39,127 nucleotides of DNA. It comes from Fidelibacterota bacterium. GTDB taxonomy: Bacteria > Fidelibacterota > Marinisomatia > Marinisomatales > TCS55. Position numbers and translations under genes: made by a program. The stretch lies in assembly GCA_046861385.1 (NCBI GenBank), contig JBHHTW010000020.1:1-39127 (forward strand), in the 5' to 3' direction. Under the pieces are notes generated by a model. It saw only the letters and a program-made list of their open reading frames with translations, had not been told where the DNA came from and did not search any database. Of this stretch, positions 1,164-34,418 are shown piece after piece; position 1 is the stretch's first letter, and the number at the start of each line of letters is the position of its first letter.

Positions 1164-1586
1164 CTATTCTCCGATTATTTTCACCAATACACGCTTGTTT
1201 CGTCTGCCGTCGAATTCTCCATAAAATATTTGCTCCCAGGTACCAAAATGCAATTGCCCATCCGTTATAGCTACGACGACTTCTCTTCCCATTATTTGAC
1301 GTTTATGATGGGCATCTCCATTATCTTCCCCTGTTCGGTTATGGTGATATCGATCAGGACTGGCATCGAAGGGCGCCAGGTCTTCCAGCCAGCGTTTATA
1401 ATCTTCGTGCAGACCCGCTTCATCATCATTTATAAAAACAGATGCAGTAATATGCATTGCGTTGACCAAACATAATCCATTCTGAATTTCACTTTCTTTC
1501 ACGGCATCATCTACATCAGATGTAATATTGACAAACCCCATTCGTTCAGGGATATGAAACCAGAGTTCTTTGTGAAATGTCTTCAT
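1164..1586 (-). CDS. yjbQ: YjbQ/UPF0047 family protein, copy 1
   Basis: Motifs '[13 protein letters not shown]', '[16 protein letters not shown]' and '[14 protein letters not shown]'. The ATG at 1586 ([10 protein letters not shown]) is preferred over the TTG at 1607 in the ORF track. Confidence 0.9.
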
Positions 1587-1610
1587 ACTTAATCTATTGG
1601 TTCGCAAATA

Positions 1611-4015: not shown

Positions 4016-5425
4016 TTACGAGTTATCGGCTTCAAATGACTCCAAAATAATTCCGATACAGGCAGTCAGCTTTTTTGCATATGGTATGTGAAGAAACTCA
4101 TTGGGACCATGAGCATTTGATCGGGGACCGAGCACACCGGTTATGACAAATTGTGCATCAGGGAATCGCTTCCCCAGCATGGACATAAATGGAATTGACC
4201 CTCCTTCACCCATGTTTAATGCTGGCTTTCCAAAAATATTTTCTGATGCAGATTGAATTCCTTTCTCAAGCCAGGCAGATTTTTTTGGGGCATCCCAGCC
4301 AGAGGCAGGTTCATCAAATTTGAGTGTTATTTTTGCTCGGTAAGGGGGGTCATTTAATAAAATCTTTTCTAGATTATCTCGTACAATATTGGCGTTAAGA
4401 GTCGGTGGTAATCGTAAGGACAGTTTTACGGCAGTATAGGGTCTGAGTACATTACCACCATCCTTTGCCGCAGGGATGCCATCTGCACCTACAATAGATA
4501 ACATCGGGCGCCACGTGCGATTTAAAACCATCTCAACCTTATCATCGGTCATGGGCTCAGCGCCTTCAACCCATGGAAACGCGTCGAACACTTCATCACC
4601 GAGAACGTTCACCATGGTTTTCACATCCTCAACTCTGTAATCAGGGATATTTACAAAAAAATCTTTAACTAAAATTCGTCCGTTTTTTTCATCTTCAATC
4701 CGGGATAATAGTTGTCTCATAATTCGGAAAGACGAAGGAACAATTCCACTTCCGCCTGAATGAATACCCTCTTTTAAAATATCTACCCTCAGCGTGCAGC
4801 CGATCATGCCCCGCAACGATGTAGTGGTCCAGAATTGATCATAATTCCCGGCACCGGAATCTAAACAGATTACCAAGTCAGGTGATCCGATAATATCGCT
4901 GCAATGTTCCATGTAAAAAGGAAGATCCACTGACCCGCTTTCTTCTGAACATTCTATCAAGATAACTATTCTGGGGAGGTCAATCCCCTGTTGTAATAAT
5001 GCATTTATGGCACATACTGAGGAAAATATTGCATAACCATCGTCTGCTCCTCCTCGTCCATATAATTTTTCGTCTTTCAGAACCGGCTTCCAAGGCCCCA
5101 TTCCTTCAGTCCACCCTTCCATTTCCGGCTGCTTGTCCAAGTGCCCATACATTAAAACAGTCCCATCAACTGAACCGGGAATATCCAATATTATTAGAGG
5201 CGTTCGATCATTTTCAAAGAATCGATGGAGAGTACTGGTCTTCGGTTTATGTTTATTAATCCAACCTATAACCAAATCAACTACTTTTTCCATATGTCCA
5301 CTGCTTTGCCAATCCGGATCAAACATGGGTGATTTATTGGGAATTTTTATATACTCAACTAAAGCTGGTAATATATTATCGTCCCAAAAAGAGTTGATAA
5401 ATTTTTGTAGTTTTCCTGAATCCAT
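4016..5425 (-). CDS. M20/M25/M40 family metallopeptidase (dipeptidase-like)
   Basis: Metal-ligand motifs 'YGHLDKQP', 'LYGRGGADDG', 'EESGS', 'CLDSG' and 'NAHGPNE'. Cytoplasmic (no signal peptide). Confidence 0.92.
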   Translation of the reverse strand: MDSGKLQKFINSFWDDNILPALVEYIKIPNKSPMFDPDWQSSGHMEKVVDLVIGWINKHKPKTSTLHRFFENDRTPLIILDIPGSVDGTVLMYGHLDKQPEMEGWTEGMGPWKPVLKDEKLYGRGGADDGYAIFSSVCAINALLQQGIDLPRIVILIECSEESGSVDLPFYMEHCSDIIGSPDLVICLDSGAGNYDQFWTTTSLRGMIGCTLRVDILKEGIHSGGSGIVPSSFRIMRQLLSRIEDEKNGRILVKDFFVNIPDYRVEDVKTMVNVLGDEVFDAFPWVEGAEPMTDDKVEMVLNRTWRPMLSIVGADGIPAAKDGGNVLRPYTAVKLSLRLPPTLNANIVRDNLEKILLNDPPYRAKITLKFDEPASGWDAPKKSAWLEKGIQSASENIFGKPALNMGEGGSIPFMSMLGKRFPDAQFVITGVLGPRSNAHGPNEFLHIPYAKKLTACIGIILESFEADNS

Positions 5426-5516
5426 AAGTTAAGTTGTTTAGTTTTGAATGAATAAAAATGGAGTGAAATATACGGATGAATCGTGCATTATGATACAATG
5501 CGATGTAATTTTTACT

Positions 5517-8500
5517 ATGAGAAACATACTTCTAATTTTTGGATTATCCACTATATTATGCGCCCAAACCAATAATAGTGAATTTCGTGCCACATGGATT
5601 ATTACATGGGATTGGATAAGTCCTGAAAAATCTGCAGTAGAGATTCAGGATCATATTCGAGAGATACTTGATAATCATGTGGATGCTCACATGACATCCG
5701 TTCTTTTTCAAATACGTCAAAGCGGAACTGCATACTATCATTCTTCCTTCGAACCTTGGGGATATTATGCCGGCTACAGTGATCCCGGGTTTGACCCCCT
5801 GGAGTTTGCTGTAAAGGAAGCCCACAAACGAGGTTTGGAATTACATGCCTGGTTTAACACATTCCAGGTTTCAAGTACTTATGCCGGAACTCCGGCAGAA
5901 GAACACCCCGAGTGGGTTTGCCGTGACCAGGATGGATATCCCATGGAATCTTATCGTTCAATTTCTCCTGGATTAGAGGCGGTCAGGGATTATTTACTGG
6001 GTGTAGCCATGGAAGTGGTGAATAATTACAATATTGACGGGTTGCACCTTGACTACGTCAGGTGGAACGAATATACGAATACAATGAACCAAATGAATTT
6101 TAGAGAGCAACCTGAAGAAATACACATGATGGATGGTTGGATCACTGAGGCTCAAATTCAAGAAATCAATCAAAATCAATCCGGAAGGTATCTGTATGAT
6201 ATTGATCACCCATACAGCGGCGGCATTCCTGCCGGTTTTTCATCTTGGGAAGAATGGTGGCGATCATCTGTAACCGAATTTGTGAGTGCTCTACATGATT
6301 CTATCCAGATTGTGAAACCTTACGTGCGACTATCAGTGGCAGCCTTGGGTAAATATAATTGGGGTGGTTGGCAAGGATACGGGACTGTTTATCAGGATGC
6401 AGCGCTATGGTATAATGAAGGCTTTATAGACCAATTAACGCCCATGCATTACCATTGGGAAACAGGAACGGGATTTCTGGGTATGCTTATAAACGATTGT
6501 CCCAACTGTTGGTCCGACTATATCCAGGACGGTATTGCAGATCACCGTATTTTTTCTGTAGGTCCTCCCTCCTATTCTATGCCCTGGAAAAATCATAAAA
6601 ATATTGTAAACGATTGCAGAACAGTGGACTGGGTAGACGGTTTTCAATTTTTTAGTTCCGGTTCGTGGGATTATTTTGGAAAATGGGCAGATGCTGGAAA
6701 TACATTTTTTGCAAAAAAGACAAAAATACCCGAGAGTTTTTCCACAGAAAGTATTCAACCAAATACACCATCTTTAAATATAAATAAAATAGACAGTCTT
6801 CATTACCAATTGAATGTGACGCCATCGGACACAAGTCACCTTAACTGGTTCGTCCTTTACCGATCGGAGACAGATAGTACAAATCCAGAAGAAAATGAAA
6901 TGATTGAGATCCGTTTTGCTGATTCAGCATTTTCTTTTTTAGATTCATTTGATGGCACCCAGGATTTTAATGGACAGTATCATTATTATGCGACTCAAGC
7001 CAACCGGTTTTGGAAAGAATCACTCCCCTCGAATATTTTCGTATCGGACTCAATCCCTTCTTTTGCTCCCGTCATCGTAAGCATTTACCCCGAAGACTTG
7101 GACTCTGTTGACGTAACCACGTCTCCTGTGATCAATTTTTCAAAAACAATGACGATACAGGATTCATACAATTTCATTACAATAACACCTGATCCGGGGC
7201 ATAACCTTGTGTGGACTAATTCAAACAAATCAGTAACGATTAATGTCTGGTACAATCTTGAATATGATACAACATATAGTATCGTCGTTTCTTCTGATTT
7301 AGCAGATGTAAATAATGTCGCTTTAGATGGTAATGGTGATGGAATTGCAGGAGATGATTATTCTTTTCAATTTCGTACTTTTGCTCAGGATGTTTTAGGA
7401 CCCATGATTACCGAAACTTCCTTCAGCGTCGATAATCCGGTTGATATTGGACAGTTACTCACCGTTACATTTAACGAAGAAATAAACTCGACATCCCTGA
7501 ATACTAACTCAGTACTATTAACTGCGAACAATAACACTATTTCTTACAACAATGCATATTCAGTATTTAACGAGGAATTTTCATCATACACCATCAGACC
7601 AATCGAAGGACATTTCAGTGCAAATACAGAATACCAAATACAGTTTACAGATGGAATAACAGATTTGGATGGTAATCCGATGCAGCCCATAACATTCACA
7701 TTCAATTCCGAACCTCAGGTTTATGACGAGGTTGCATTTATTGATGAGTTCGATAATACTGCCAATTGGTGGACTCCCAGTGGAAGCGGCTCAACGGTGG
7801 GAATTCTTTCCGGAACGTCATTTGAGATAGATAATACCATATCGATACCCGGTACATATCCAAGAAAGTCGGCAAAATTAAGCTATGTCTGGGACACATC
7901 TGTATCTGACCATTTAATTCGAACCTATCTATCTGGTGGTGATCCAAGAGCCGTTGAGTTCGATACCAGTTATACTCTCGAATGTTATGTTTATGGCGAT
8001 GGGAGTCATAATTATTTTAGATTTGCTTTAGATGATCATTTACCAACAACAGCAGGCAATTACCATGAAGTGAGTCGATGGTTTGAAATCGACTGGATAG
8101 GTTGGAAATTGATCACATGGGACCTTGGGGTAGATTCAGTAGGTTCTTGGATTGGTAATGGAAAATTGGAAGGTACGCTGCGTACTGATTCATTCCAGAT
8201 GACTTATAATGATGCATTTGGCATCAGCGAAGGGGCCATTTATTTTGATGATTATAAAATTACAAAAAAATCATTTAGCTTGAATACCAGGAATGAGCAT
8301 GCGATTATACCAGAAAAAATGACTCTTTTTCAAAATTATCCAAATCCATTCAACCCGATTACAGAAATACAATACTCCATACCCCAATATGGATATGTTT
8401 CAATAATGGTATACAATTTGCTTGGACAACAGGTCAAAACGCTTGTTAATGAAATTCAAAATGCCGGATCCCATACAATCATTTGGGACGGAAACGATTC

Positions 8501-8591
8501 TTATGGACAAACGGTTGCATCCGGAATTTATTTCTGTCAGCTAAAATCAGTGAATGAAGTAAAAACGATTAGGATGGTATTTACAAAATAA
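5517..8591 (+). CDS. Secreted GHL10 (DUF187; YddW/DigH-like) glycoside hydrolase with FN3-like domain, two SbsA/Big_5 Ig domains, a CBM-like module and a T9SS-type CTD
   Basis: Signal peptide from ATG 5517 (MRNILLIFGLSTILCAQ). GHL10 motifs 'EFRATWI', 'FQIRQSGTAYY', 'FDPLEFAVKEAHKRGLELHAWFN' and 'IDGLHLDYVR'. C-terminus 'LFQNYPNPFNPIT...VASGIYFCQL...IRMVFTK'. Confidence 0.85.
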   Translation: MRNILLIFGLSTILCAQTNNSEFRATWIITWDWISPEKSAVEIQDHIREILDNHVDAHMTSVLFQIRQSGTAYYHSSFEPWGYYAGYSDPGFDPLEFAVKEAHKRGLELHAWFNTFQVSSTYAGTPAEEHPEWVCRDQDGYPMESYRSISPGLEAVRDYLLGVAMEVVNNYNIDGLHLDYVRWNEYTNTMNQMNFREQPEEIHMMDGWITEAQIQEINQNQSGRYLYDIDHPYSGGIPAGFSSWEEWWRSSVTEFVSALHDSIQIVKPYVRLSVAALGKYNWGGWQGYGTVYQDAALWYNEGFIDQLTPMHYHWETGTGFLGMLINDCPNCWSDYIQDGIADHRIFSVGPPSYSMPWKNHKNIVNDCRTVDWVDGFQFFSSGSWDYFGKWADAGNTFFAKKTKIPESFSTESIQPNTPSLNINKIDSLHYQLNVTPSDTSHLNWFVLYRSETDSTNPEENEMIEIRFADSAFSFLDSFDGTQDFNGQYHYYATQANRFWKESLPSNIFVSDSIPSFAPVIVSIYPEDLDSVDVTTSPVINFSKTMTIQDSYNFITITPDPGHNLVWTNSNKSVTINVWYNLEYDTTYSIVVSSDLADVNNVALDGNGDGIAGDDYSFQFRTFAQDVLGPMITETSFSVDNPVDIGQLLTVTFNEEINSTSLNTNSVLLTANNNTISYNNAYSVFNEEFSSYTIRPIEGHFSANTEYQIQFTDGITDLDGNPMQPITFTFNSEPQVYDEVAFIDEFDNTANWWTPSGSGSTVGILSGTSFEIDNTISIPGTYPRKSAKLSYVWDTSVSDHLIRTYLSGGDPRAVEFDTSYTLECYVYGDGSHNYFRFALDDHLPTTAGNYHEVSRWFEIDWIGWKLITWDLGVDSVGSWIGNGKLEGTLRTDSFQMTYNDAFGISEGAIYFDDYKITKKSFSLNTRNEHAIIPEKMTLFQNYPNPFNPITEIQYSIPQYGYVSIMVYNLLGQQVKTLVNEIQNAGSHTIIWDGNDSYGQTVASGIYFCQLKSVNEVKTIRMVFTK

Positions 8592-8596
8592 GAACC

Positions 8597-8691
8597 TGTC
8601 ATTACCCCCAAGTCGACGAATTGATCTCCTAAATTAAACTAAAGTAAGGAGATTACTTCTCCCGATACACTGTATCGGGCTCGCAAAGACA
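8597..8691. repeat. Palindromic intergenic element (RPE/REP-like) between convergent genes, possibly a bidirectional terminator
   Basis: Ends TGTCATT...CTCGCAAAGACA, internal inverted repeat ATCTCCT (8624-8630) / AGGAGAT (8647-8653), and a perfect palindrome CCCGATACA-C-TGTATCGGG (8661-8679). Confidence 0.55.
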
Positions 8692-8800
8692 ATAATTATT
8701 ACCTATGTAATATAGGTTTTCCCAATTTGGATTGTCTCCACTGTGTTGCTGATAAATTGTCCTTACCGATGGCAGGGAAGACCAAATACATAACAGAGAT

Positions 8801-11302
8801 TTATTTTAATAAAACCATCCGATTTGTTAGTTGCCTTGTATTGGTTTTTAATGTGTAAAAATATACTCCGCTGGGTACCGATATTCCATTCTGATCTTTC
8901 CCATTCCATTTTAAGGAGTAGGTTCCTCGTGTTAATCGCTTTTGTACCAGTGTGCGAATATGTTTTCCCATTAATGAAAAAATCTTAACCTCAGCATTTT
9001 GCGTCGACGGAAGTGAAAATTCGATTATTGTTTCCGGATTGAATGGATTTGGATAATTTTGCTTAAGAACAAATTCATCGGGGATGTTTTCTTGATCAAC
9101 TACATTTAATTTTACTTCTTTAACCAGTCGCAAATCATCGATAATAATGGATCCTTGAGAAATATTACCATTAACGTAAGAAAGTTGAAAACTGTCGAAC
9201 CTCAGATTTCCATTCAACGACCCATCTCCAATCCAACTTCCGGTTCCATCCTCTATCATATTCCATGAAATTAGTTTCCAGCCATACCAATCGACCGTAT
9301 ACCACGGGCTGACTTCATGGTTAGACGCACCGGATTGTGGAACATTATCATCGACACAAAATCGAAACAGAGTTCCGTTTCCATCACCAAAAATATATGC
9401 CTGCATGGTGAACTCATCATTGAAAATAATATTGCGCGGCGCGCCTCCTCCTAAATATTCTCTAATCAGCCAGTTGGATGCATTCACGTCCCATCTGTAG
9501 TTTATAGCCATGGCGACCTGGCTGGCTGTAATATGATTTATTATACTAGAGTCTGAACCCATTCCTGTTTCTTCCGCAACCGTTCCAGTCGTGCTGCCAC
9601 TCATGCTTGGCGCCCACCAGTTGCTCATCAAATTATTTTCGAAATTGTCCAATTCATTTATTGCCCAGTCTGTATTTCCAGTTTGAAAACTGATATTATA
9701 AGCACCTGATACTGTATTACCAAAAAGGTCTCTAATACCCGGGATAATTCTAGTAATAAATACTTCATTTGGAAATAGGGGGTTCTCTGGAAAAAGACTA
9801 ACGACACTGTGTTCATTAACGCTGTAATGTTCAATAAGTATCGGAATATCTTCACCGGTCTGAAATCGTTCCAGTCTTATGAGATGGAGTAGTGTATCCG
9901 TGTGGCCAATAATTTCGTTGAATGTGAGATTGACCAGCGGATGTTGCTCGATATTGGATGATGTCATGGGGGGATATAAATTAACAAGAATCGGTGCTTC
10001 TATATCACTGGCACTGCTCTGATAATGCAGAGTAAATGTCCCGCCGGGATTTCCATCAATATCTCCGTCAAAAACATGTCCGTAAATGTCCCGGGCCCTT
10101 TCTGTTATTGTTATCGTAAAGTCAGTCTCATATAAGGAACTGTCAGGGTAAATCAATACCGTTTTTGAATCATTTATCCATTGATAAGATAATGGAACAG
10201 ATGGCAGAAACTCTATTGCTTGTTCTGTGCTATCCCGATTCATAGCCCGGGAGAAAGTGATTTTGACAGGATCCCAAGCCGGATAACCTTGTTCCCCTTC
10301 TACAGGATTTGTCAATATTACAGTTGGTGGTGTCGAAGATAACAATTCAATATCCCGGAAAGTAATAAATGAATTATTTATTTCAACAAACATTGTATCG
10401 GGATAATAGCCATCAGCAGCCACAACAAGCGGTATGGTTGAATCGGGAAGATTTTCGAAAAAGAAAAACCCATTATGCAAAGCATTTGGATCATTGGTAT
10501 AATGATTAAACAATGAAGTATAAGTGTCTGTTGTATATGTTTGCTCATTTAAAGATACTGTGGCACCATTAATCGGAACTGCGTTTTCCAGATCCCGTAT
10601 TATTCCTGCGCAGATTCCCACAAACGGTCTGACAATATTATGATACTCAAGAATGGACCAATAAAATGTATAAGCCAATAATCGTTTATATTCTTCATTC
10701 ATCGTTAATTGATTTTGAACAGGATGAGTGTGATGTCCCTCTTCGCTCAGTTCCGAAGGCATATTTGTATTCCGATTCACATAGAGATAGGGTCCCTGCC
10801 AACTATTGGAACAAGCGCCTGTATAACTGTAAAAGCTGCAGTCTCCTCTGGAGCCTATGGTAGAAATCCTCATTCCCCGGGTTAGCAAATCGATCATATA
10901 ACCACTCATTTCCTCACCACCGGAAGGAGGATCAGGCTGGCCATTATACAACTCTCCCCATAGCAGTAATGTGTTATTATGATCCGATGCCCCGGCATTG
11001 CTGTGTATTGAGTGATACCAGGACGCTCCAAGAGAATTTGCATGATGCGTTCTTTGATAGAGTGTTACCTGTTCTTGGTTATTTTTCCTTGAAATATAGG
11101 CCGTATCAATATCTGTTTGATTTAATAATATATCTTGTAAATGAAGCCCAACTTTTAATGCTTCTTCAGCTTCAGAATAACCGTTAACTCCCATGTTTTC
11201 TCTTTGGCTGTGTCCCGGATCAATAAAGATATCCCAGCCCGATAACCCAGATACCTGGCTGTACAAACTGGATATTGTTAATAACACAATGATACTCTTC
11301 AT
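8801..11302 (-). CDS. Secreted N-acetylmuramoyl-L-alanine amidase (Amidase_3) with carboxypeptidase-regulatory-like domain, two Big_5 Ig domains, a CBM-like module and a T9SS-type CTD
   Basis: Signal peptide, then Zn ligands and catalytic residue in 'IFIDPGHS', 'SEAEE', 'SIHSNA' and 'ELSEEG'. C-terminus 'LKQNYPNPFNPET...VPSGVYFYTL...NRMVLLK'. Confidence 0.88.
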   Translation of the reverse strand: MKSIIVLLTISSLYSQVSGLSGWDIFIDPGHSQRENMGVNGYSEAEEALKVGLHLQDILLNQTDIDTAYISRKNNQEQVTLYQRTHHANSLGASWYHSIHSNAGASDHNNTLLLWGELYNGQPDPPSGGEEMSGYMIDLLTRGMRISTIGSRGDCSFYSYTGACSNSWQGPYLYVNRNTNMPSELSEEGHHTHPVQNQLTMNEEYKRLLAYTFYWSILEYHNIVRPFVGICAGIIRDLENAVPINGATVSLNEQTYTTDTYTSLFNHYTNDPNALHNGFFFFENLPDSTIPLVVAADGYYPDTMFVEINNSFITFRDIELLSSTPPTVILTNPVEGEQGYPAWDPVKITFSRAMNRDSTEQAIEFLPSVPLSYQWINDSKTVLIYPDSSLYETDFTITITERARDIYGHVFDGDIDGNPGGTFTLHYQSSASDIEAPILVNLYPPMTSSNIEQHPLVNLTFNEIIGHTDTLLHLIRLERFQTGEDIPILIEHYSVNEHSVVSLFPENPLFPNEVFITRIIPGIRDLFGNTVSGAYNISFQTGNTDWAINELDNFENNLMSNWWAPSMSGSTTGTVAEETGMGSDSSIINHITASQVAMAINYRWDVNASNWLIREYLGGGAPRNIIFNDEFTMQAYIFGDGNGTLFRFCVDDNVPQSGASNHEVSPWYTVDWYGWKLISWNMIEDGTGSWIGDGSLNGNLRFDSFQLSYVNGNISQGSIIIDDLRLVKEVKLNVVDQENIPDEFVLKQNYPNPFNPETIIEFSLPSTQNAEVKIFSLMGKHIRTLVQKRLTRGTYSLKWNGKDQNGISVPSGVYFYTLKTNTRQLTNRMVLLK

Positions 11303-12213
11303 CGTTGTACCTCTGCCATATACAGCTCATTATTAATATCAGTATCATAAATAATATGAGTGTTGTCAACCCAAGTTGGTCTCATGGCGATTAGATCGGT
11401 CCCATGAGTAACATTGATCAGATCCGTCCCGTCGGATTTAACAACATAAATATCTGATTGTGTAATATTGTAGCCGTCATCATCAGTACGCATAAAGACT
11501 ATTTTGCTTCCGTCAGGAGACCATTCTGCTTCGTGCCCAATACCCAGGTTTATTGTGGATTGATCTTCAATATTGATCATAATCAAATTGCCGCCATACT
11601 CTTCATATAATATTTTTTCTCCATTTGGTGAAACCGCCATATCGTGGATTTCTTTAATATTCTTAAGAAACGGTCTTCTCTTTTTATTGTCTTTTGAAAC
11701 TAAGTAGATAGTGTTTTTCTCAAAATTATAATATTCTGATCGTGTCGAACTTTTAAAGGTTAAATAATAATTTCCCTTTATTTTGGTGTTTCCAGCTAAA
11801 TAGATATTATTTCTGTCAATCCATATAATTTTCCCTGGCAGACTCATTTTATCTGAAATGATAACATTTTTCAGGCCACTCTCAAGTTCATAAACAACTA
11901 AAGAATTATATCGTCTTTTTTCAAGGAAGAAAGCAGGTTTATATGCAATGGCATCTCCTGAGGTCGACCAGCTATATCCAAATCCGGCAGCGGTTTCATT
12001 TGTAATCTCAAGTACTGATTTATCACTCATGTTTAGCAGATATAGTCCAATATAATTCGGTAATGTAAATGAAAGATATTTTCCGTCAGATGAAATTTGC
12101 GGGTTAATGACACCCGATTCAGATTGATAGATCATTTGGTGATCGAATGGTTTCTGCGCAAACAATATTGCTATGGAAAAAACGAGATGGGTTCGGAAGA
12201 AAATTTTAATCAT
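11299..12213 (-). CDS. TolB-like PD40/WD40 beta-propeller protein, exported
   Basis: Repeats 'PQISSDGKYLSF', 'VSPNGEKILY', 'WSPDGSKIVF' and 'DIYVVKSDGTDLINVT'. N-terminal signal-like segment and ATGA overlap with the amidase. Confidence 0.8.
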   Translation of the reverse strand: MIKIFFRTHLVFSIAILFAQKPFDHQMIYQSESGVINPQISSDGKYLSFTLPNYIGLYLLNMSDKSVLEITNETAAGFGYSWSTSGDAIAYKPAFFLEKRRYNSLVVYELESGLKNVIISDKMSLPGKIIWIDRNNIYLAGNTKIKGNYYLTFKSSTRSEYYNFEKNTIYLVSKDNKKRRPFLKNIKEIHDMAVSPNGEKILYEEYGGNLIMINIEDQSTINLGIGHEAEWSPDGSKIVFMRTDDDGYNITQSDIYVVKSDGTDLINVTHGTDLIAMRPTWVDNTHIIYDTDINNELYMAEVQR

Positions 12214-12261: not shown

Positions 12262-12296
12262 AAAAAAAGAGAGCCTCGAAAAATTCGAGGCTCTCT
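12262..12296 (-). terminator. Rho-independent terminator downstream of uptake cluster 1
   Basis: Perfect 13-bp stem AGAGAGCCTCGAA (12268-12280) / TTCGAGGCTCTCT (12284-12296). The A-run at 12262-12267 gives a U-tract on the minus strand, about 24 nt after the stop codon at 12320. Confidence 0.9.
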
Positions 12297-12319: not shown

Positions 12320-14674
12320 TTATTTAACCAACAGCATTCTTTTACTCATCATCTGCTGACCATCCGTGATTGTATATAGATACATTCCGGTGGCAAGGTG
12401 ACTCGCATCGAAGGATACGGTATGGTGACCCATCATCATGTAATCATTTACAAGAACAGCAACTTCGCGCCCTGTAACATCATAAACAGTCAATTTCACA
12501 CGACTATCGTTGAACAATTCAAACTCAATATTCGTGGATGGATTGAATGGGTTAGGATAGTTCTGATGTAAACTGAAAGCACGAGGCAATCTCACAACAT
12601 CATCATCTATACCGACATCACCGCTAACAAACTTAGAGACTCTTCCGCCATCGAAGTCAGCCACATAAGCTACCGTGTAGTCACTGTTGAAAGAAATACC
12701 GCGCGGTGCACGAATAGTGTCTCCACCTGCGACTGCATTGGCATCAAAAGATACACCATAGGGTTGACCTGTTCCAATTGAACCAACAATCTGATGGTTT
12801 GCTCCTGGATCTAATTCATACCAACCGGTGAAATCTCCTTCATTCACATTCCAGTAAGTTCCTACCCATAATGTGCTGTCTTTACCCCAATCCAGGCATT
12901 GACCCCACATGACTTCATTATACAGAATGTCTTGTAGAACAAAAGTACCTTCCGGTCCATCTGCACTGTAATAGTGGAATACACCATTGTTATGGGTTCC
13001 ACCATAAATACGAGCATGGTATAAATTGTTACCCGTCGCATCTACCAGAACATTACGTGATATAGCTGTGTTTGTACCGTCTTCAATGGAATTCACTAAA
13101 TCAGGAGAATCTACTGCGTCTCCTGTATAATCATCCGGTAATCCCAAAGAAGCATCAAATACCCATATGGGATTTCCACCTGGTACAACTTGTGTAACAA
13201 ACAGGTAACCGTCTCCGGTCATTGATGTTTCTGTAATCGATCCAGGAAAATTATAATACGCACCTAAACCTTCTCCGGTTTGAGCATTAATCTGCCATAC
13301 GTCATTGTAGGCTGAATAAAGAATATTACCGTTCATGTCTAAAGACACACCACGACAACCATTCCACATGGTATCTACGCGTCCATCAGACCAACTAATT
13401 GTCCGAATCGGTGAAAATGAGGCTTGGGTTCCGTCTGCTTCATAAACATAAATTGGCTTAATCGGTATCGTATCTGTGGGCAATCCCAATGTGTCTGAAT
13501 ATGCATAATATCCAACCCACACGCGGCCATTACCATCCACAACTGCCGAATGCGCCTGCTTCCCTACTGCAAAATCACTGTCGTAAGTCCAATCATCGAA
13601 TGAAGGAGCTTCTTGCAGCGCAGGTGCCGTAAACCCTGTACCATCATCTATAAACTTAGAGACTCTTCCGCCATCGAAGTCAGCCACATAAGCTACCGTG
13701 TAGTCACTGTTGAAAGAAATACCGCGCGGTGCACGAATAGTGTCTCCACCTGCGACTGCATTGGCATCAAAAGATACACCATAGGGTTGACCTGTTCCAA
13801 TTGAACCAACAATCTGATGGTTTGCTCCTGGATCTAATTCATACCAACCGGTGAAATCTCCTTCATTCACATTCCAGTAAGTTCCTACCCATAATGTGCT
13901 GTCTTTACCCCAATCCAGGCATTGACCCCACATGACTTCATTATACAGAATGTCTTGTAGAACAAAAGTACCTTCCGGTCCATCTGCACTGTAATAGTGG
14001 AATACACCATTGTTATGGGTTCCACCATAAATACGAGCATGGTATAAATTGTTACCCGTCGCATCTACCAGAACATTACGTGATATAGCTGTGTTTGTAC
14101 CGTCTTCAATGGAATTCACTAAATCAGGAGAATCTACTGCGTCTCCTGTATAATCATCCGGTAATCCCAAAGAAGCATCAAATACCCATATGGGATTTCC
14201 ACCTGGTACAACTTGTGTAACAAACAGGTAACCGTCTCCGGTCATTGATGTTTCTGTAATCGATCCAGGAAAATTATAATACGCACCTAAACCTTCTCCG
14301 GTTTGAGCATTAATCTGCCATACGTCATTGTAGGCTGAATAAAGAATATTACCGTTCATGTCTAAAGACACACCACGACAACCATTCCACATGGTATCTA
14401 CGCGTCCATCAGACCAACTAATTGTCCGAATCGGTGAAAATGAGGCTTGGGTTCCGTCTGCTTCATAAACATAAATTGGCTTAATCGGTATCGTATCTGT
14501 GGGCAATCCCAATGTGTCTGAATATGCATAATATCCAACCCACACGCGGCCATTACCATCCACAACTGCCGAATGCGCCTGCTTCCCTACTGCAAAATCA
14601 CTGTCGTAGACCCACTCAGAATGGAGAAATGTGCCTGCGATGATGATCAATGCAACTATTAACATTCTCTTCAT
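12320..14674 (-). CDS. Secreted tandem NHL-like beta-propeller protein (two identical ~319-aa units) with a T9SS-type CTD
   Basis: ATG at 14674 with SD AGAGGAG (14680-14686) and a signal peptide (MKRMLIVALIIIAG). Blade motifs 'SAVVDGNGRVWVG' and 'APRGISFNSDYTVAYVADF'. CTD 'LHQNYPNPFNPST...LATGMYLYTI...KRMLLVK'. Confidence 0.85.
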   Translation of the reverse strand: MKRMLIVALIIIAGTFLHSEWVYDSDFAVGKQAHSAVVDGNGRVWVGYYAYSDTLGLPTDTIPIKPIYVYEADGTQASFSPIRTISWSDGRVDTMWNGCRGVSLDMNGNILYSAYNDVWQINAQTGEGLGAYYNFPGSITETSMTGDGYLFVTQVVPGGNPIWVFDASLGLPDDYTGDAVDSPDLVNSIEDGTNTAISRNVLVDATGNNLYHARIYGGTHNNGVFHYYSADGPEGTFVLQDILYNEVMWGQCLDWGKDSTLWVGTYWNVNEGDFTGWYELDPGANHQIVGSIGTGQPYGVSFDANAVAGGDTIRAPRGISFNSDYTVAYVADFDGGRVSKFIDDGTGFTAPALQEAPSFDDWTYDSDFAVGKQAHSAVVDGNGRVWVGYYAYSDTLGLPTDTIPIKPIYVYEADGTQASFSPIRTISWSDGRVDTMWNGCRGVSLDMNGNILYSAYNDVWQINAQTGEGLGAYYNFPGSITETSMTGDGYLFVTQVVPGGNPIWVFDASLGLPDDYTGDAVDSPDLVNSIEDGTNTAISRNVLVDATGNNLYHARIYGGTHNNGVFHYYSADGPEGTFVLQDILYNEVMWGQCLDWGKDSTLWVGTYWNVNEGDFTGWYELDPGANHQIVGSIGTGQPYGVSFDANAVAGGDTIRAPRGISFNSDYTVAYVADFDGGRVSKFVSGDVGIDDDVVRLPRAFSLHQNYPNPFNPSTNIEFELFNDSRVKLTVYDVTGREVAVLVNDYMMMGHHTVSFDASHLATGMYLYTITDGQQMMSKRMLLVK
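12629..14608. repeat. Direct repeat, 2 x 957 bp (12629-13585 and 13652-14608), period 1023 bp, with a 66-bp unique spacer
   Basis: Line-by-line comparison by eye found no mismatch between the two copies. The repeat is in frame within the propeller gene. Confidence 0.97.
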
Positions 14675-14679
14675 TTGTA

Positions 14680-14686
14680 CTCCTCT
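14680..14686 (-). promoter_or_regulatory. Shine-Dalgarno site (AGAGGAG) of the tandem propeller gene
   Basis: CTCCTCT on the + strand, 5 nt from the ATG at 14674. Confidence 0.75.
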
Positions 14687-14771
14687 TATTTTTGGTTTGA
14701 TTATTTTCATTAGAAAATACGTTCTGATAATAGGTGTTTCTTCCTAATGATCCAAAACATAATTCTCATTT

Positions 14772-16901
14772 TTATCGTATTACGATAAACTTTTTAAAGA
14801 CTGATTCGCCTTTCTGAAAAATGAGTGCTTGAGTATCCTGGTCGGTAATATCTTCTGTTACCTCGAAATAGGCAATATATAATCCAGACACAACAACTTG
14901 TCTGTACTGTGTTAATGAATTCCATTCCTGGTCTCCGCTGCCATCGTTATGATCAATGACTTCAATTAAATCTCCCCGTTCCGTAAATATTTTTATTTTG
15001 CATTTCCCCGGAATATTATAAAACATGACTTTATCCGACTGCCCCGGAAACTGCAACGCATTGTTCGAAATATGGTAAGGATTTGGCACGACCCGAATTT
15101 GATCCAATGTTGTTCCTTGTTTCCGTTTTAAAAAAGCCGGTTTACTTGTTTTCGTGTAAAAATGTGAACTTCTCAGCGAACCAGTTGGGTTAGTAATTCC
15201 TTCTGAATTCAAAGAACCATTACTCTTGGAAACAATATAATAATAGTAAGAAAATCCTCTGATCGCCGTTACATCATCAAATTGGTAAGTACCGGCAGGA
15301 CCGGAATATATTGGGTCCGGGCCAAAAACAGTATCCGGTTTAGCGACAGCGCGATAAATCTCATATCCGTCGAAGTTCGGATCCGATTCTGATTCGCTGG
15401 CTAACCAACTTAGAAAAATCCTGTCTCCGCCAGATTCAACATTAAAGACAGGTGGAGGCATTGGAGGTTCGGGTATCGATAAACCTGATTCATAATTTCT
15501 TTTTGCCCTGCTAAATGTCTGTAGAATAGAATCTTTTCCAGTGTAAACCCATGCATTCTTAAATTCATCCTTATCTGATGTCGTCCCGCTGCCGGGTAAA
15601 TCGTACGGTGCTATTCCATTTAAATATTCTTGTCCTACCCATTCACATAATTGTCTGGAAATTCCGTTAATTCCTTCTGCTTCAACGATGGTAATACTTT
15701 CCCCGGGCGCAAGAGTATAAGGGCCATAGGCGATCATTACATTTGTTCCACCCGGATCATTATGTACCGTCGATGGATCCTCTCCCGGATAGGAATCATA
15801 CGCACCATATTCCTCATCCATGCGGTTATTGCCTCCTTTATCTGAACCACCGTATGGATTTCCGCTCAACATTGTGTATAACCGGGTCATTTTCACAGCA
15901 TCATCGTCTGGCTGGTACCGTCCAATAGACGGATAAGTGTCACCGGCATGCCAACCCAGGAATACGGGTTGATTCGCATCATCACTTGTATCACTAGGAC
16001 TGGTATCCACATGAATTACGACTGAACCCACGTGGTGCGGTGATGTTAAACGTCCACTGCCGGTTTGTTTTGGTGCGCCCACATTATCAAATGAATTTGA
16101 AGCATTTTGCCCTAGCCAGCTAAAACCACAGCGCAGCCAATCAACAATTCCGGATGCTTCTGTGATAACATCATTCTGATGAAGCGGATAATCTTCACCA
16201 CGCTTTGTGACCCACATATGCTTCCCCCAGGATGCAGGTCCTCCAGCATTCCATGATGCTTCTCGGCTGCCGCTGTAACGAGTTCCCCATCCAATTCTAA
16301 CACCATGCAAGGTATCGTTGAGTTCTATCTCTTCATCCCAATCGGTATTTCCTGTATTTGTAAACGTAAATACCTTAATAAAATAATTATCATGATATTG
16401 CTGAGAGAATGCATAAATGGTTCGATTCATGGTTAGTCCCATGGATGTATTCACTATATTAATAATTTTTCTGTCGGAAGGAATGGTGCTGTCATACTCA
16501 TCAATGTCGCTCAGATATATCCCGGTGGTATTGATCCCATCAACATAGACAGACGGCGGTTCAAATTGCGCTATCTGTTTCAACTCCATAGGGAAAATAC
16601 TGGTTTCTACATAGCTCAAAGAAAAATAAATACCGTAATGCTCCCATGACTGGTTTTTATCATCCGTAAAATTTTCACATGCTAGCCAGGTTCGTTTAAT
16701 GACTGCATTATCCTGAAATTGGTAATCTGCTGGCCACCGTAATCCTTCATAATACGAATTATTCCAAGCCCGTTCAGATCCCCACGCTGAAAAATGACTT
16801 TGTAATGATCCGATTCGTATATACCGTTTTTCTGTTTCACCTACCTGCGAATAAATCACCGTAAATAATATGACAAATAATATTGTGAGTTTTTTAACCA
16901 C
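14772..16901 (-). CDS. Uncharacterised TBDR-partner protein 2 with FN3-like domain and variant CTD ('IRVVPNPY')
   Basis: GTG start overlapping the TBDR stop (TAGTG) and a signal peptide. 'GDRIFLSW...FDGYEIYRA...FDDVTAIRGFSYYYYIVS' is FN3-like. C-terminus 'IRVVPNPY...CKIKIFTERGDLI...VVSGLYIAYFEV...KFIVIR'. Confidence 0.8.
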   Translation of the reverse strand: MVKKLTILFVILFTVIYSQVGETEKRYIRIGSLQSHFSAWGSERAWNNSYYEGLRWPADYQFQDNAVIKRTWLACENFTDDKNQSWEHYGIYFSLSYVETSIFPMELKQIAQFEPPSVYVDGINTTGIYLSDIDEYDSTIPSDRKIINIVNTSMGLTMNRTIYAFSQQYHDNYFIKVFTFTNTGNTDWDEEIELNDTLHGVRIGWGTRYSGSREASWNAGGPASWGKHMWVTKRGEDYPLHQNDVITEASGIVDWLRCGFSWLGQNASNSFDNVGAPKQTGSGRLTSPHHVGSVVIHVDTSPSDTSDDANQPVFLGWHAGDTYPSIGRYQPDDDAVKMTRLYTMLSGNPYGGSDKGGNNRMDEEYGAYDSYPGEDPSTVHNDPGGTNVMIAYGPYTLAPGESITIVEAEGINGISRQLCEWVGQEYLNGIAPYDLPGSGTTSDKDEFKNAWVYTGKDSILQTFSRAKRNYESGLSIPEPPMPPPVFNVESGGDRIFLSWLASESESDPNFDGYEIYRAVAKPDTVFGPDPIYSGPAGTYQFDDVTAIRGFSYYYYIVSKSNGSLNSEGITNPTGSLRSSHFYTKTSKPAFLKRKQGTTLDQIRVVPNPYHISNNALQFPGQSDKVMFYNIPGKCKIKIFTERGDLIEVIDHNDGSGDQEWNSLTQYRQVVVSGLYIAYFEVTEDITDQDTQALIFQKGESVFKKFIVIR

Positions 16902-19900
16902 TAAAATTCCATAGTTATTCCAAACACAATATCTCTTGGATCTAAAAACGAAACAGATTTCAGGTTTGGCATATTTATATAGGCTTTCGTATCCAAAATC
17001 TTTTGTTCCTCAGAAGTGAGATGATCCGGATCAACAGGATTAAATGGCTGATATTTAACACCACTCTCACGGTAATCCCCTACGCGATCGTGTCCTTTTT
17101 CCGAACCTTCTTCCCAAGAGAAATGCAAGGATTCCATATAATCAATATAGTCATGTTTATCTGAAAAAACGGATGATTCTGCTGAACCTCGAGGTGTTCC
17201 TGCGGAGTTTAAGTATTTATTATTGGTTAGATTAGAAATATCCACAAACATCCGCATTTGAATATTGTTTAAACGAAATGATTTCGCTATTCTCAAATCC
17301 AAAAACCATTGATCCTTCCACTGAACATTATCAATGATACCAGGTTTATTGCTGGGGTTATATGTGGCGTACTCTCCCGATTCATAATTAAACAACACAC
17401 TCAGTACCCACTGGCTCAAGGGACGAATACCAATAATACTGGGTCCGAACCTTGATGGTGTAGTAAAATTAATGACTGAGTTTACATAAGGTTGTGCGTG
17501 AGGTTTGAATTGCTGAGGATTAACAATATCGGATTCTCTTTGCAAATTTGGATCTTCATAATATTTAGTTAATCCGAAATATCCGGAGGATTTGATCAAA
17601 TAAGTATAGTTGATGAATCCGGTAATATACTCACCCCTTACTTTTTCAACAACGAATTCAAAACCGCGTATATCCTCGTAATTATTGTTAGCAGCCTGTT
17701 TGTATTGGACAGATCGATTTAAGCTCTGATAAGAAATAGTTCCAATCTGGTTTGTTACATCTTTATAGTATGCAGTCAAGTTCATTAAATATGAGTCAAA
17801 AAATAATTGTGAATACCCCAATTCATAAGCAATGGTTTTTTCATAGAGCAAATTTGGATTGCCTAAGTTTGTGACCAATCCGTTTGATTCTCTTTGAATT
17901 CCGAATCGATATTGCGATCCCGGTTCAGAATAAAAATGACCATAATTAAAATACAATTTTGAAGATTCAGTAATGGGAAAGGAAACACCGAGTCTCGGAT
18001 GTAAAGAATACTGTGGTTTTGAACCTCTCGTTGCAACGGAATCTTCTATTTCATCTCCCAAGCCCTGACTCAAATTCTCGTCGTATGAATTTAAATTATA
18101 TACAATAGTATTTGAATTGGAATATTCACTCCTCAAACCAATATTAGCTATAAATCCTTCAAATTCCAGTTTATCCTGGGCATAAAACGACAACCGAAAA
18201 GGATTAACATTATACACAAGGTCCCTATTCCATGTAGACATTCCCGGATTGCTGGCAAAGGAATAAATATCCATCTTATTTGAAACCAATTCAAATCCGG
18301 TTTTAATTTGATTGTTTGGATTTATCTGGGAAGAATAATCAAATTTCCCTATGAAGGTTGAGATACTTGACCTGTCACGACCAATGTTCATCCAACCTCC
18401 AATATTCATACCATCAATACCTGTCACACCGTATCCCCAATATCCATATGGTGCTTCATCTACAAAATAATCCTCAAATATTTCATTTGTTTTGGTTGTA
18501 TCTCTTAACATGGTTTGATATGTTTTATAAAACTGGTTCGAGTATTGTATCAATATTTCATAAAAACGTTTGGGATCGAGCATATGATTTACTTTAACCC
18601 CAAATCCGGATCGATAAATGGTGGTGGGAGAGTAATATCCAGGCATATATAGGACGCTGTTTCCACTGGAACTATTTAATAGATTAGCTACGGATTGGTC
18701 GGATTTTAGAACATATCCTGTTGGAGTGGTTGTCCAGTTATAAGGGGAAACAGACTGTGTTTCACCATATTTTGTTACGACAGTGATATCGGTTTTATCT
18801 CCAATATCAACATTAATTTTCAACCGGGTATTCGTTCCAGTGTATCGATCCCTTGACAGTGGGAAAATAAACATTGATTCTTCACTATAGTGGGTCAGGT
18901 AAAATCGAGGATTCCCATATTTGAATACACCTGATATTGGTCCGCCAATCGCAACATCGATCGTTCTGTCCGGGTTCGTAATATCACCATTACGGCGATG
19001 TTCCCAAGAGAATAGGCGCCGGGCTTGTTCCGGCGATATATCATTATTAGGATTCATATCGGTTAAGGTCGCTGCGGATACGGCATTCCAACCCTCAAAA
19101 GACGGATATTGCCCTTCAGTATAATCATCCCATGCTCCGTTATTTGTTCCCGTCCAACAAACAGTTGTATCCATGTAAGGCCGCAAGAAATATGAGTTCG
19201 GATCAAACGTTGATAAACCAAAATGCTTTGGTGCCGGGGGTCGATAATAAACTGCCACTGATCCATGAAATCGGTCTGATTGCCCTTCTTTGTTCACAAT
19301 ATTTACAATTCCGGATCTTATGTTTCCGTACTCAGCGTTAAAACCGCCGGATTGAACCTGTATATTGGAAACACCCAATAAAGACGTGGTAGTAACTGGA
19401 GAAAAACTTCGAGCATCATTTTGAAGAAAACCGTCGATATAGACACCGGTTTGTGTTGACGAGCTGCCTCGAATGGATAAACCGCTAACACCCGCTTGTA
19501 AACCAATGACATCATCAATGTTTGACAGGGGCATCTTTTCAATCACCTCGTCTGTTATATTTATTTTGCTGGAAGTCACATCGGACTCTACCCATTCCCT
19601 TTCAGCTGTGACGGTAATTTCATCAAAATCCAAGGTTTCCAATTGCATTCTGCTATTTATATGAGTTGTCTGATCGATTCGAACAGTCACATGTTGGATG
19701 GACAGACGTGCATAGCCAATAATTTGAATGTTAAGTGTGTAATCGCCCGGAGGAACATTTAATATGACATAGTGACCATTCTGGTCCGTTACAGCACCCA
19801 ATTGCAATTCAGGTAAAAATATATTTACACCCGGTAGCGGGTCTCCTGTCTCAAATTCAGAAATGACTCCGCCAATTTTTCCCGATATTCCTGCGAAACA

Positions 19901-19954
19901 AAAAGAGAAAATTGAAACCAATACAAATATTAGTTTGGTTTCGTATCTTTTCAC
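16901..19954 (-). CDS. TonB-dependent receptor 2 with N-terminal carboxypeptidase-regulatory-like domain
   Basis: 'GKIGGVISEFETGDPLPGVNI', plug motifs 'SIRGS' and 'SGGFNAEYGNIRSGIVNIVNKEG', barrel motifs 'YAQDKLEF' and 'PRLGVSFPI...LYFNYGHF', and a terminal Phe. Confidence 0.92.
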   Translation of the reverse strand: MKRYETKLIFVLVSIFSFCFAGISGKIGGVISEFETGDPLPGVNIFLPELQLGAVTDQNGHYVILNVPPGDYTLNIQIIGYARLSIQHVTVRIDQTTHINSRMQLETLDFDEITVTAEREWVESDVTSSKINITDEVIEKMPLSNIDDVIGLQAGVSGLSIRGSSSTQTGVYIDGFLQNDARSFSPVTTTSLLGVSNIQVQSGGFNAEYGNIRSGIVNIVNKEGQSDRFHGSVAVYYRPPAPKHFGLSTFDPNSYFLRPYMDTTVCWTGTNNGAWDDYTEGQYPSFEGWNAVSAATLTDMNPNNDISPEQARRLFSWEHRRNGDITNPDRTIDVAIGGPISGVFKYGNPRFYLTHYSEESMFIFPLSRDRYTGTNTRLKINVDIGDKTDITVVTKYGETQSVSPYNWTTTPTGYVLKSDQSVANLLNSSSGNSVLYMPGYYSPTTIYRSGFGVKVNHMLDPKRFYEILIQYSNQFYKTYQTMLRDTTKTNEIFEDYFVDEAPYGYWGYGVTGIDGMNIGGWMNIGRDRSSISTFIGKFDYSSQINPNNQIKTGFELVSNKMDIYSFASNPGMSTWNRDLVYNVNPFRLSFYAQDKLEFEGFIANIGLRSEYSNSNTIVYNLNSYDENLSQGLGDEIEDSVATRGSKPQYSLHPRLGVSFPITESSKLYFNYGHFYSEPGSQYRFGIQRESNGLVTNLGNPNLLYEKTIAYELGYSQLFFDSYLMNLTAYYKDVTNQIGTISYQSLNRSVQYKQAANNNYEDIRGFEFVVEKVRGEYITGFINYTYLIKSSGYFGLTKYYEDPNLQRESDIVNPQQFKPHAQPYVNSVINFTTPSRFGPSIIGIRPLSQWVLSVLFNYESGEYATYNPSNKPGIIDNVQWKDQWFLDLRIAKSFRLNNIQMRMFVDISNLTNNKYLNSAGTPRGSAESSVFSDKHDYIDYMESLHFSWEEGSEKGHDRVGDYRESGVKYQPFNPVDPDHLTSEEQKILDTKAYINMPNLKSVSFLDPRDIVFGITMEF

Positions 19955-34408: not shown

Positions 34409-34418
34409 TATCAAATCC

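Follow-up and report, generated by a model that had tools for sequence, protein, structure and literature searches.

A candidate extracellular peptidoglycan-harvesting locus with a predicted periplasmic amidase inhibitor in a Fidelibacterota bacterium

We analyzed 39,127 nt of DNA (referred to here as the window) from a Fidelibacterota bacterium (GTDB lineage Bacteria; Fidelibacterota; Marinisomatia; Marinisomatales; TCS55), namely positions 1-39,127 of the forward strand of contig JBHHTW010000020.1 in assembly GCA_046861385.1. The window encodes a secreted Amidase_3 protein and a GHL10 glycosidase in convergent genes, and a small TolB-like beta-propeller protein whose gene overlaps that of the amidase. 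We consider the chances slightly better than even that this locus is a system for harvesting extracellular peptidoglycan and that the propeller is a periplasmic inhibitor of the amidase. An earlier note, made from the sequence of the window, had proposed that the two enzymes digest peptidoglycan outside the cell in two steps. From the genome of origin (2.43 Mb, 97.85% complete) and two sets of relatives, we directly established which domains, catalytic residues and folds the proteins have, and how their genes are linked and distributed. The close set consisted of 41 genomes of the same order. For the wider set, a pattern scan of GTDB species genomes gave 183 amidase relatives; we retained the best 80 loci, to which all counts per 80 given below refer.

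The amidase gene (8801..11302, minus strand; identified by Pfam, NCBIfam and a structure model) encodes 833 aa. The protein consists of a signal peptide, an Amidase_3 domain, a CarboxypepD_reg-like domain, two Big_5 domains, a CBM11-like domain and a C-terminal sorting domain (CTD) of the type IX secretion system (T9SS). The catalytic domain (aa 25-217; 10652..11230, minus strand), supported by Pfam, the alignment with PDB 4rn7 and the model, matched Amidase_3 (PF01520) with E 3.3e-15 and 57 bits against a cut-off of 27, and with 60 bits in the genome search. The earlier note had claimed an intact H/E/H/E set of residues, and this was confirmed: H31 (11210-11212), E44 (11171-11173), H100 (11003-11005) and E187 (10742-10744), all on the minus strand, align with the zinc ligands and the catalytic Glu of 4rn7, and they are invariant in 9/9 and 80/80 homologues. 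The model of the amidase had a pLDDT of 94.4, and the top ~25 Foldseek matches were all peptidoglycan amidases, Cwp6 (PDB 5j72) among them. The best matches (probability 1.00) were 5emi (AmiC2 of Nostoc, TMt 0.86), 1jwq (CwlV, 0.88) and 4rn7 (0.85), while AmiA, AmiB and AmiC matched more poorly (TMt 0.39-0.74). No Pfam match to an N-terminal targeting domain of the AmiA/B/C type was found in this protein. The spacing between H100 and E187 is 87 residues, compared with more than 100 in the housekeeping copy described below. By profile, catalytic residues and predicted fold, the protein is an Amidase_3 enzyme, and it is predicted to cleave the MurNAc-L-Ala bond.

The GHL10 gene (5517..8591, plus strand; identified by Pfam, NCBIfam and alignment of orthologues) lies tail to tail with the amidase gene, with 209 bp between them. 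It encodes 1,024 aa, numbered here from the Met at 5517, a start common to the orthologues; the reading frame is open from 5448. The catalytic domain matched Pfam GHL10 at aa 23-314 (E 1e-36, 127 bits against a cut-off of 27.9), and by this profile it is a member of the family (PF02638). A signal peptide (aa 1-17) precedes a TIM barrel that is conserved among orthologues to about aa 400. Then follow a stretch to about aa 515, two Big_5 domains, a CBM11-like domain and a T9SS CTD. We found no useful Pfam match for aa 315-520 at E up to 10. The N-termini of the GHL10 protein and the amidase, read by eye, are short, hydrophobic and signal-peptide-like (MRNILLIFGLSTILCAQ and MKSIIVLLTISSLYSQ). The tail-to-tail arrangement, signal peptides, Big_5 domains and type A-like CTDs described earlier were all found again, with both reading frames intact and both CTD scores above the cut-off.

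The glycosidase had also been called DigH-like, and in the sense of a specificity for denuded glycan this description was not supported. DigH of E. coli, a hydrolase described as specific for such glycan (PMC12288456), is 26% identical to the window domain (E 1e-29) and also 26% identical to the housekeeping GHL10 protein of the genome, while the two GHL10 domains of the genome share 24% identity. The window domain is thus no nearer to DigH than the housekeeping copy is. The nearest solved structure is Cwp19 of C. difficile (PDB 5oq2, E 4.4e-28), a peptidoglycan lytic transglycosylase (PMC6016235). Among the residues discussed for the Cwp19 active site (PMC5765458), the equivalents of Trp36, Gln77, Trp127, Tyr297 and one Asp of Asp195/196 are retained, and Phe367-Ser368 of Cwp19 is retained by motif; Arg132, Gln295 and 'DD' are changed. 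We placed the domain among its relatives by a quick maximum-likelihood search with SH-aLRT, from which Cwp19 and DogH, a GHL10 enzyme of Deinococcus, were left out. A long branch separated the 27 sequences of the window clade from each of the three outgroups. This quick tree suggests a separate GHL10 clade on very long branches. Of the placements proposed in the earlier note, that against DigH was obtained.

One sign that the two enzymes are functionally coupled is their common C-terminal part. The last ~497 aa of both proteins are homologous (34% identity, E 5e-79) and form a cassette of two Big_5 domains, a CBM11-like domain of ~200 aa and the CTD. In the GHL10 protein, the Big_5 Ig-like domains lie at 7065..7721 (Pfam, cassette alignment), the CBM11-like domain at 7719..8336 (below the Pfam threshold, recognized by homology to the amidase copy) and the type-A CTD at 8337..8588 (TIGR04183, 32.2 bits, cut-off 23), all on the plus strand. 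In the amidase, the CBM11-like domain lies at 9068..9700 and the type-A CTD at 8804..9055, both on the minus strand; this CTD scored 37.4 bits with TIGR04183 (cut-off 23) and 30.9 bits with Por_Secre_tail (cut-off 27). The CBM11-like domains of the two proteins are 42% identical. Neither of them matched a Pfam family even at E up to 10. A model based on an alignment of 99 copies gave a beta-sandwich (pLDDT 91.5), and we searched it against 48,161 PDB representatives with VIA-align. FlaA1, a sheath protein of spirochaetes, ranked first (Z 14.8); CBM11 (1v0a) gave Z 13.9 (rmsd 3.1, 163 aligned), and modules of CBM27, CBM22 and CBM4 matched at Z 10-13. In a Pfam scan, 14/99 copies weakly matched CBM_11 (PF03425; E up to 1, best 1.1e-4) and 5/99 matched FlaA. 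The model suggests a CBM11-like fold of the kind seen in carbohydrate-binding modules, and the domain may bind glycan. According to tblastn over the whole genome, it occurs in the GHL10 protein and the amidase only, compared with ~40 reading frames that carry a CTD.

T9SS machinery is encoded in the genome. PorU scored 584.7 bits (cut-off 420) and SprA 719 bits summed (cut-off 200), and two PorV-like genes are located in the window itself. Judging by sorting domain, signal peptide and machinery, both enzymes would be T9SS type-A cargo. This agrees with the export route proposed earlier, and export itself is predicted from sequence. The genome also contains canonical copies of both enzymes on other contigs: an Amidase_3 protein of 497 aa (186 bits), whose gene adjoins the glutamate racemase gene murI, and a GHL10 protein of 378 aa, whose gene adjoins rpoA. 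The secreted amidase is present in only 8/41 genomes of the same order. Because of these canonical copies and this restricted distribution, we do not regard the window pair as housekeeping enzymes.

The same data bear on the possibility that the enzymes remodel the cell's own envelope, in division or surface-layer turnover, and stay near the wall in spite of their CTD. In favour of this, a relative of TolB is encoded beside the amidase, and septal hydrolases are linked to the Tol system. Moreover, an amidase and a glycan-cleaving enzyme form the textbook pair for splitting the septum (PMC12288456). Set against this are the separate canonical copies beside murI and rpoA, a module that was not found in 33/41 close relatives, CTD scores above the cut-off together with PorU and SprA, and the fact that both proteins combine a carbohydrate-binding module with a stalk, as surface enzymes typically do. 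We regard own-envelope remodelling as very improbable.

We then turn to linkage, which the earlier note had expected in relatives. It was complete among close relatives and partial in the wider set. In 7/7 genomes of the order with a close amidase orthologue, a long GHL10 gene was found within a few kb on the same contig; in one of them (G027) the two genes lie on one strand with a 4-bp overlap. Some GHL10 match was present in 38/41 genomes of the order, mostly of a class of ~380-420 aa. In the wider set, a GHL10 orthologue of at least 300 bits was found in 25/80 amidase loci: convergent downstream in 12, divergent upstream in seven and in tandem in six (four downstream, two upstream). Three further loci had partial or weak matches, two of which were cut by contig ends. 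Adjacency is thus kept across four relative orientations, which argues for a functional, though non-obligate, tie between the two genes. The GHL10 orthologues of four amidase-less relatives (52-55% identical) all (4/4) consist of the catalytic domain and CTD only, lacking the Big_5/CBM-like cassette. As these four forms nest inside the long-form clade (quick tree, SH-aLRT 95-96), a secondary loss of the cassette is suggested. We also noted that four contigs with a Marinimicrobia- or KSB1-type locus (L049, L053, L054 and L060) come from metagenome-assembled genomes with mixed labels, titled Lentisphaeria, Chloroflexota, Methanobacteriota archaeon and Cytophagia. The GHL10 gene product of L054 is nearly identical to that of L051. 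These contigs are probably mis-binned or mislabelled.

The second finding concerns the TolB-like gene (11299..12213, minus strand), which encodes a PD40 beta-propeller of 304 aa with a signal peptide and without a CTD, as judged by Pfam, neighbourhood and complex modelling. Its stop overlaps the amidase start by 4 bp (ATGA). A propeller homologue was directly upstream of the amidase in 79/80 loci, and the remaining locus begins inside the amidase gene. All 73 full-length members have a signal peptide and lack a CTD. A profile built from them gave full-length matches in the 41 relatives at 9 places only, beside the 9 amidase homologues. No full-length propeller was detected in the 33 amidase-less relatives, where the profile gave partial repeat matches of at most 57 bits. 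We considered whether the protein is TolB itself and rejected this: TIGR02800 gave 39.2 bits against a cut-off of 343, over the propeller part only, and 304 aa is too short for the N-terminal alpha/beta domain. TolB is the best-known solved relative (53 bits), and no solved structure matched by the propeller profile was in complex with an amidase.

A terminator-like hairpin (12268..12296, minus strand; 13 pairs, 7 of them G-C, followed by a T run; found by a consensus scan only) lies between the TolB-like gene and the CTD-tagged propeller gene upstream of it. Because of its position, the TolB-like gene and the amidase gene may well form a bicistron of their own. Promoter-like sites showed no excess (29 compared with 26.5 +/- 5.4 in shuffled sequence).

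We modelled the complex of amidase aa 17-320 and propeller aa 20-304, using our own alignments of 80 and 73 rows. The ipSAE values were 0.90, 0.91 and 0.91, while the best of three controls gave 0.00; the runs had at least 95% of contacts in common, and the partner pLDDT was at least 86. The ipSAE mark that we applied is reached by 116/157 solved complexes and 2/215 mismatched pairs, and it is a rough guide here because our own alignments were used. The predicted interface on the amidase is its catalytic face (G30-H31, H100, 166-182, and 185 next to E187). On the propeller, it consists of loops of every blade on one face, including the invariant D245 and G247. The model supports binding of the propeller to the catalytic face of the amidase. 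We therefore see the propeller as the constant partner of the amidase, predicted to be its cap or inhibitor.

An obligate partner could have another role. The propeller might be an activator, a substrate-presenting subunit or an export escort, possibly one that leaves the cell bound to the amidase. Strict co-occurrence and predicted binding would fit any obligate partner, and the known protein partners of Amidase_3 enzymes (EnvC, GerS and ActH) are activators. We consider such a role improbable, as the predicted interface lies over the zinc-ligand face (H31, H100, 166-185), and all 73 full-length propellers that were read have a signal peptide without a CTD. In addition, the window amidase is structurally nearest to amidases that are not known to carry the regulatory insertion of AmiA/B/C.

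The amidase-propeller module is duplicated in some loci. In L093 (4257-7660) and L109 (6876-10299), a second amidase, 27-29% identical to that of the window, is preceded by a gene for a second propeller. L111 contains a second amidase match only (4756-5694). In L109, a further reading frame of 303 aa (10309-11220) follows the second module.

This layout leads to a second alternative, that the same enzymes and guard serve as a weapon, antibacterial or predatory, for the lysis of live neighbours, as opposed to a means of scavenging necromass. A lytic enzyme gene beside a gene for a cognate periplasmic binding protein is the arrangement of effectors and immunity proteins; duplicated and diverged modules keep their own propellers, and the distribution is patchy (8/41 relatives). 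On the other hand, the peptidoglycan of living Gram-negative cells is shielded from outside by the outer membrane, and no membrane-breaching partner was seen in the locus. The module sits in a TonB-dependent uptake operon. Furthermore, no orphan propellers were found in the 33 amidase-less relatives, which fits self-protection during export and not defence against neighbours. On this evidence we think a weapon unlikely.

Upstream of the TolB-like gene, on the same strand, lie genes of an uptake type. A TonB-dependent receptor with CarboxypepD_reg and Plug domains (16901..19954, minus strand; Pfam, conservation) heads the array. It is always followed by a secreted protein of 709 aa (14772..16901, minus strand), for which no Pfam family at E up to 10 and no SusD-family match were found. 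Then comes a CTD-tagged beta-propeller protein of 796 aa (12320..14710, minus strand), internally duplicated and conserved as the upstream neighbour in Marinimicrobia loci. The order receptor, 709-aa protein, CTD propeller, TolB-like propeller and amidase is conserved in Marinimicrobia loci. The receptor or its 709-aa partner was found in 32/80 loci; in loci labelled Ignavibacteria they are divergent and ~2 kb upstream. We presume that the receptor imports digestion products and that the 709-aa protein is its surface binding partner.

A signal peptide is present in the 709-aa protein, and its C-terminal segment, of the 'VVPNPY...' type, resembles a T9SS sorting domain but is missed by Pfam; a paralogue with 38% identity is encoded at 22850-24889. 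The three sets of receptor and large-protein genes in the window, all on the minus strand, are 16901-19954 with 14772-16901, 25006-28152 with 22847-24889, and 34419-37163 with 31289-34441. Two of them are followed by a PorV-like barrel gene (21285-22307 and 30276-31292). These sets look like a SusD-less type of uptake locus of the phylum. In the CTD-propeller gene, a perfect direct repeat was reported (100% over 300 nt, spacing 1,023 nt), and the protein has two apparently identical halves of ~341 aa. Its orthologues have 776-784 aa in three relatives and 310-482 aa in three others. The repeat is either a recent duplication or conversion, or an effect of assembly. A cytoplasmic M20 peptidase (4016..5425, minus strand; Pfam) is encoded divergently from the GHL10 gene. 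We considered it as the stem-peptide peptidase of the system, and its membership is doubtful, as it adjoins GHL10 in 2/80 loci only, those of relatives from the same genus and the same family. Two tandem UPF0047 (YjbQ-like) genes lie at 752-1162 and 1164-1607 (minus strand).

Genes of peptidoglycan breakdown adjoin the module in some loci. A Pfam scan of five loci of relatives, all without GHL10, found them beside the module in 3/5 and unrelated neighbours in 2/5: AnmK, LdcA and an S13 DD-carboxypeptidase in L056, a CTD-tagged Amidase_2 with AnmK in L055, and GH20 in L064. Per 80 loci, we counted LdcA in 7, S13 DD-carboxypeptidase in 5, AnmK in 3, Amidase_2 in 3, MurQ in 1 and GH20 in 1. The genome of origin itself encodes MurQ (351 bits) and an LdcA and S13 pair. 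AnmK was not found in the genome, and we therefore dropped anhydro-muropeptide catabolism as a pointer to lytic-transglycosylase chemistry in this organism.

Two side observations concern these genes. The MurQ gene overlaps the end of a sodium:alanine symporter gene by 4 bp (L123, 8431-10715; own contig C3). This unusual pairing might couple the import of alanine from wall material to the breakdown of MurNAc. In L056, AnmK beside the amidase module is followed by a gene for a 775-aa protein without a Pfam family (13660-15984). The protein is also found in L059 and, as a partial match at the end of the locus, in L035 and L055, and a copy with 62% identity is encoded in the genome of origin (C89:76739-79042). 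It may be a further member of the wall-harvesting set.

The enzymes may also act on a polymer other than peptidoglycan, such as a glycopeptide or a different N-acetylhexosamine glycan; the Amidase_3 and GHL10 folds would then have been re-purposed. All four catalytic residues of the amidase are invariant, every top structural match of it is a MurNAc-L-Ala amidase, and AnmK, LdcA, S13 DD-carboxypeptidase, Amidase_2 or MurQ adjoin in some loci; these points speak against another polymer. Its supporting points are the distinct GHL10 clade without two of the Cwp19/DigH signature residues, the activity of DogH on substrates other than peptidoglycan (PMC9967864), a CBM-like fold that is silent on its ligand and the modest Amidase_3 score of 57 bits. 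We give this explanation only a small chance.

Returning to the peptidoglycan-harvesting system, we infer its substrate, the order of both reactions, inhibition by the propeller, secretion and uptake, and we propose the following course. The Sec pathway would export the amidase, the GHL10 glycosidase and the 304-aa propeller. In the periplasm, one face of the propeller is predicted to cover the catalytic face of the amidase, so that the cell's own sacculus would be spared. The T9SS would then move the two CTD-tagged enzymes across the outer membrane, and the propeller, which lacks a CTD, would stay behind. Outside, both enzymes would stand on their two-Big_5 stalks, with the CBM11-like module binding glycan strands of foreign peptidoglycan. 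The zinc amidase would take off the stem peptides, and the GHL10 enzyme would cut the glycan backbone. Finally, the TonB-dependent receptor and its 709-aa partner would import the fragments, which the housekeeping enzymes LdcA, S13 carboxypeptidase and MurQ may catabolise. The two-step extracellular digestion proposed earlier is thus partly supported, by the coupling of the genes, the unique cassette, the enzymes being extra to the housekeeping copies, the T9SS and the uptake context; DigH-type specificity is not supported, and the pairing is not obligate.

A bolder form of this proposal can be offered tentatively, and we put its chances somewhat below even. The propeller would be a dedicated periplasmic inhibitor providing 'transit immunity', covering the catalytic face in the way that TolB covers Pal, and would be stripped off by the translocon. 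The GHL10 enzyme would travel unguarded since it cuts stripped glycan only. Together with the receptor operon, the module would be a peptidoglycan utilisation locus found across Marinimicrobia, Calditrichota, KSB1 and Ignavibacteria. A guard on the amidase alone fits the two-step idea, as it would be expected if the glycosidase cannot cut peptide-bearing wall; this is an argument from consistency and not a test.

Several points weigh against the harvesting system with its inhibitor. All of the evidence was obtained in silico, from sequence, gene linkage and predicted structures, and the compared genomes are related and not independent. The public sequencing runs listed as containing the stretch are DNA runs, two of them marked as a possible source, with no RNA run among them. 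No GHL10 match was found in the fetched DNA of 52/80 amidase loci, 23/52 of which extend at least 6 kb on both sides; these loci are mostly labelled Ignavibacteria. Therefore the amidase also works without the GHL10 glycosidase. Compared with both Cwp19 and DigH, the glycosidase is altered at positions whose part in Cwp19 catalysis has been discussed (PMC5765458): Arg132 is replaced by Gln117, Gln295 by Met310, and 'FDDY' by 'LDY' ('DD' by 'DY'). For DogH, a member of the same family, activity towards starch, cellobiose and melibiose has been reported (PMC9967864). Because of these residue changes, the equal distance of both GHL10 copies from DigH and the activity of DogH, we leave DigH-type specificity as an open inference. 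The complex model cannot separate an inhibitor from an activator. The Amidase_3 partners among the structural matches (EnvC with AmiB, GerS with CwlD and ActH with LytH) are activators. Regarding uptake, the families of the receptor and of the 709-aa protein each have several copies, and the window alone contains three such sets. Peptidoglycan-recycling genes flank a minority of loci and also serve recycling of the own wall, and AnmK was not found in a genome that is 97.85% complete.

Neither the two enzyme families nor T9SS cargo nor receptor-linked hydrolase loci are new in themselves. E. coli AmiA/B/C and DigH (YddW, GHL10) share the two enzyme families with the window, and the order in which peptides are removed and the bare glycan is then cut. 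In E. coli, these enzymes reside in the periplasm, bound to the divisome, and are either auto-inhibited or LytM-activated. The window pair, by contrast, has a CBM-like module as well as Big_5 stalks and T9SS CTDs. The window GHL10 is only 26% identical to DigH, no nearer than the housekeeping copy, and the genome keeps its housekeeping enzymes separately. In C. difficile, Cwp6 and Cwp19 are likewise an amidase and a GHL10 enzyme displayed outside the membrane. Cwp19 has been described as anchored by CWB2, a module that it shares with Cwp6. These two are Gram-positive autolysins that act on their own wall, with an anchoring module other than that of the window pair, no propeller partner and no uptake operon.

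The propeller also has a parallel in TolB-Pal, where a six-bladed periplasmic PD40 propeller applies one face to a peptidoglycan-recognising protein. Binding of TolB blocks the peptidoglycan-binding site of Pal. The difference is that Pal is OmpA-like, while the window propeller lacks the N-terminal domain of TolB and has an Amidase_3 enzyme as its predicted partner. Type VI secretion system (T6SS) pairs (Tae/Tai and Ssp/Rap) likewise place the gene of a wall-degrading enzyme beside that of a cognate periplasmic binder, and duplicated modules keep their partners. In the window, by contrast, the route is T9SS through the own periplasm, the folds on both sides are other ones, and the genes belong to a nutrient-uptake operon; unlike in T6SS pairs, no orphan partner genes were seen in amidase-less relatives. 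Finally, polysaccharide utilization loci (PULs) of Bacteroidota (SusC/SusD) resemble the window in that the gene of a TonB-dependent receptor precedes those of surface proteins and of secreted hydrolases with CBMs. In the window, a 709-aa protein without a Pfam family takes the place of SusD, the enzymes are T9SS cargo as opposed to lipoproteins, and the substrate is presumed to be peptidoglycan.

In the open-access literature, we found no description of two enzymes with a cassette that is unique to them in the genome, nor of a co-inherited propeller predicted over an amidase active site. No 'peptidoglycan utilization locus', no SusC-linked peptidoglycan PUL with an amidase and no relevant T9SS MurNAc-L-Ala amidase with a CTD were found there either, and the search for beta-propeller immunity proteins gave T6SS work only.

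Bacterial wall remains are a large marine pool of organic carbon and nitrogen, and deep and low-oxygen waters are rich in Marinimicrobia. Earlier surveys of Marinimicrobia genomes guessed at the use of peptidoglycan from counts of GH23, GH103 and CBM50 (PMC5596340). If our reading is true, it would supply concrete, testable genes for the use of wall remains, namely those of a conserved amidase and glycosidase that are secreted outwards and linked to a TonB-dependent importer, and the CBM-like module would be a candidate for a new peptidoglycan-binding domain. The propeller would add a rule to the T9SS, concerning the export of a wall-degrading enzyme through the own wall compartment, and a new use of the TolB fold. 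The amidase would then be the first case of T9SS cargo requiring a guard on its way through the wall of its own producer.

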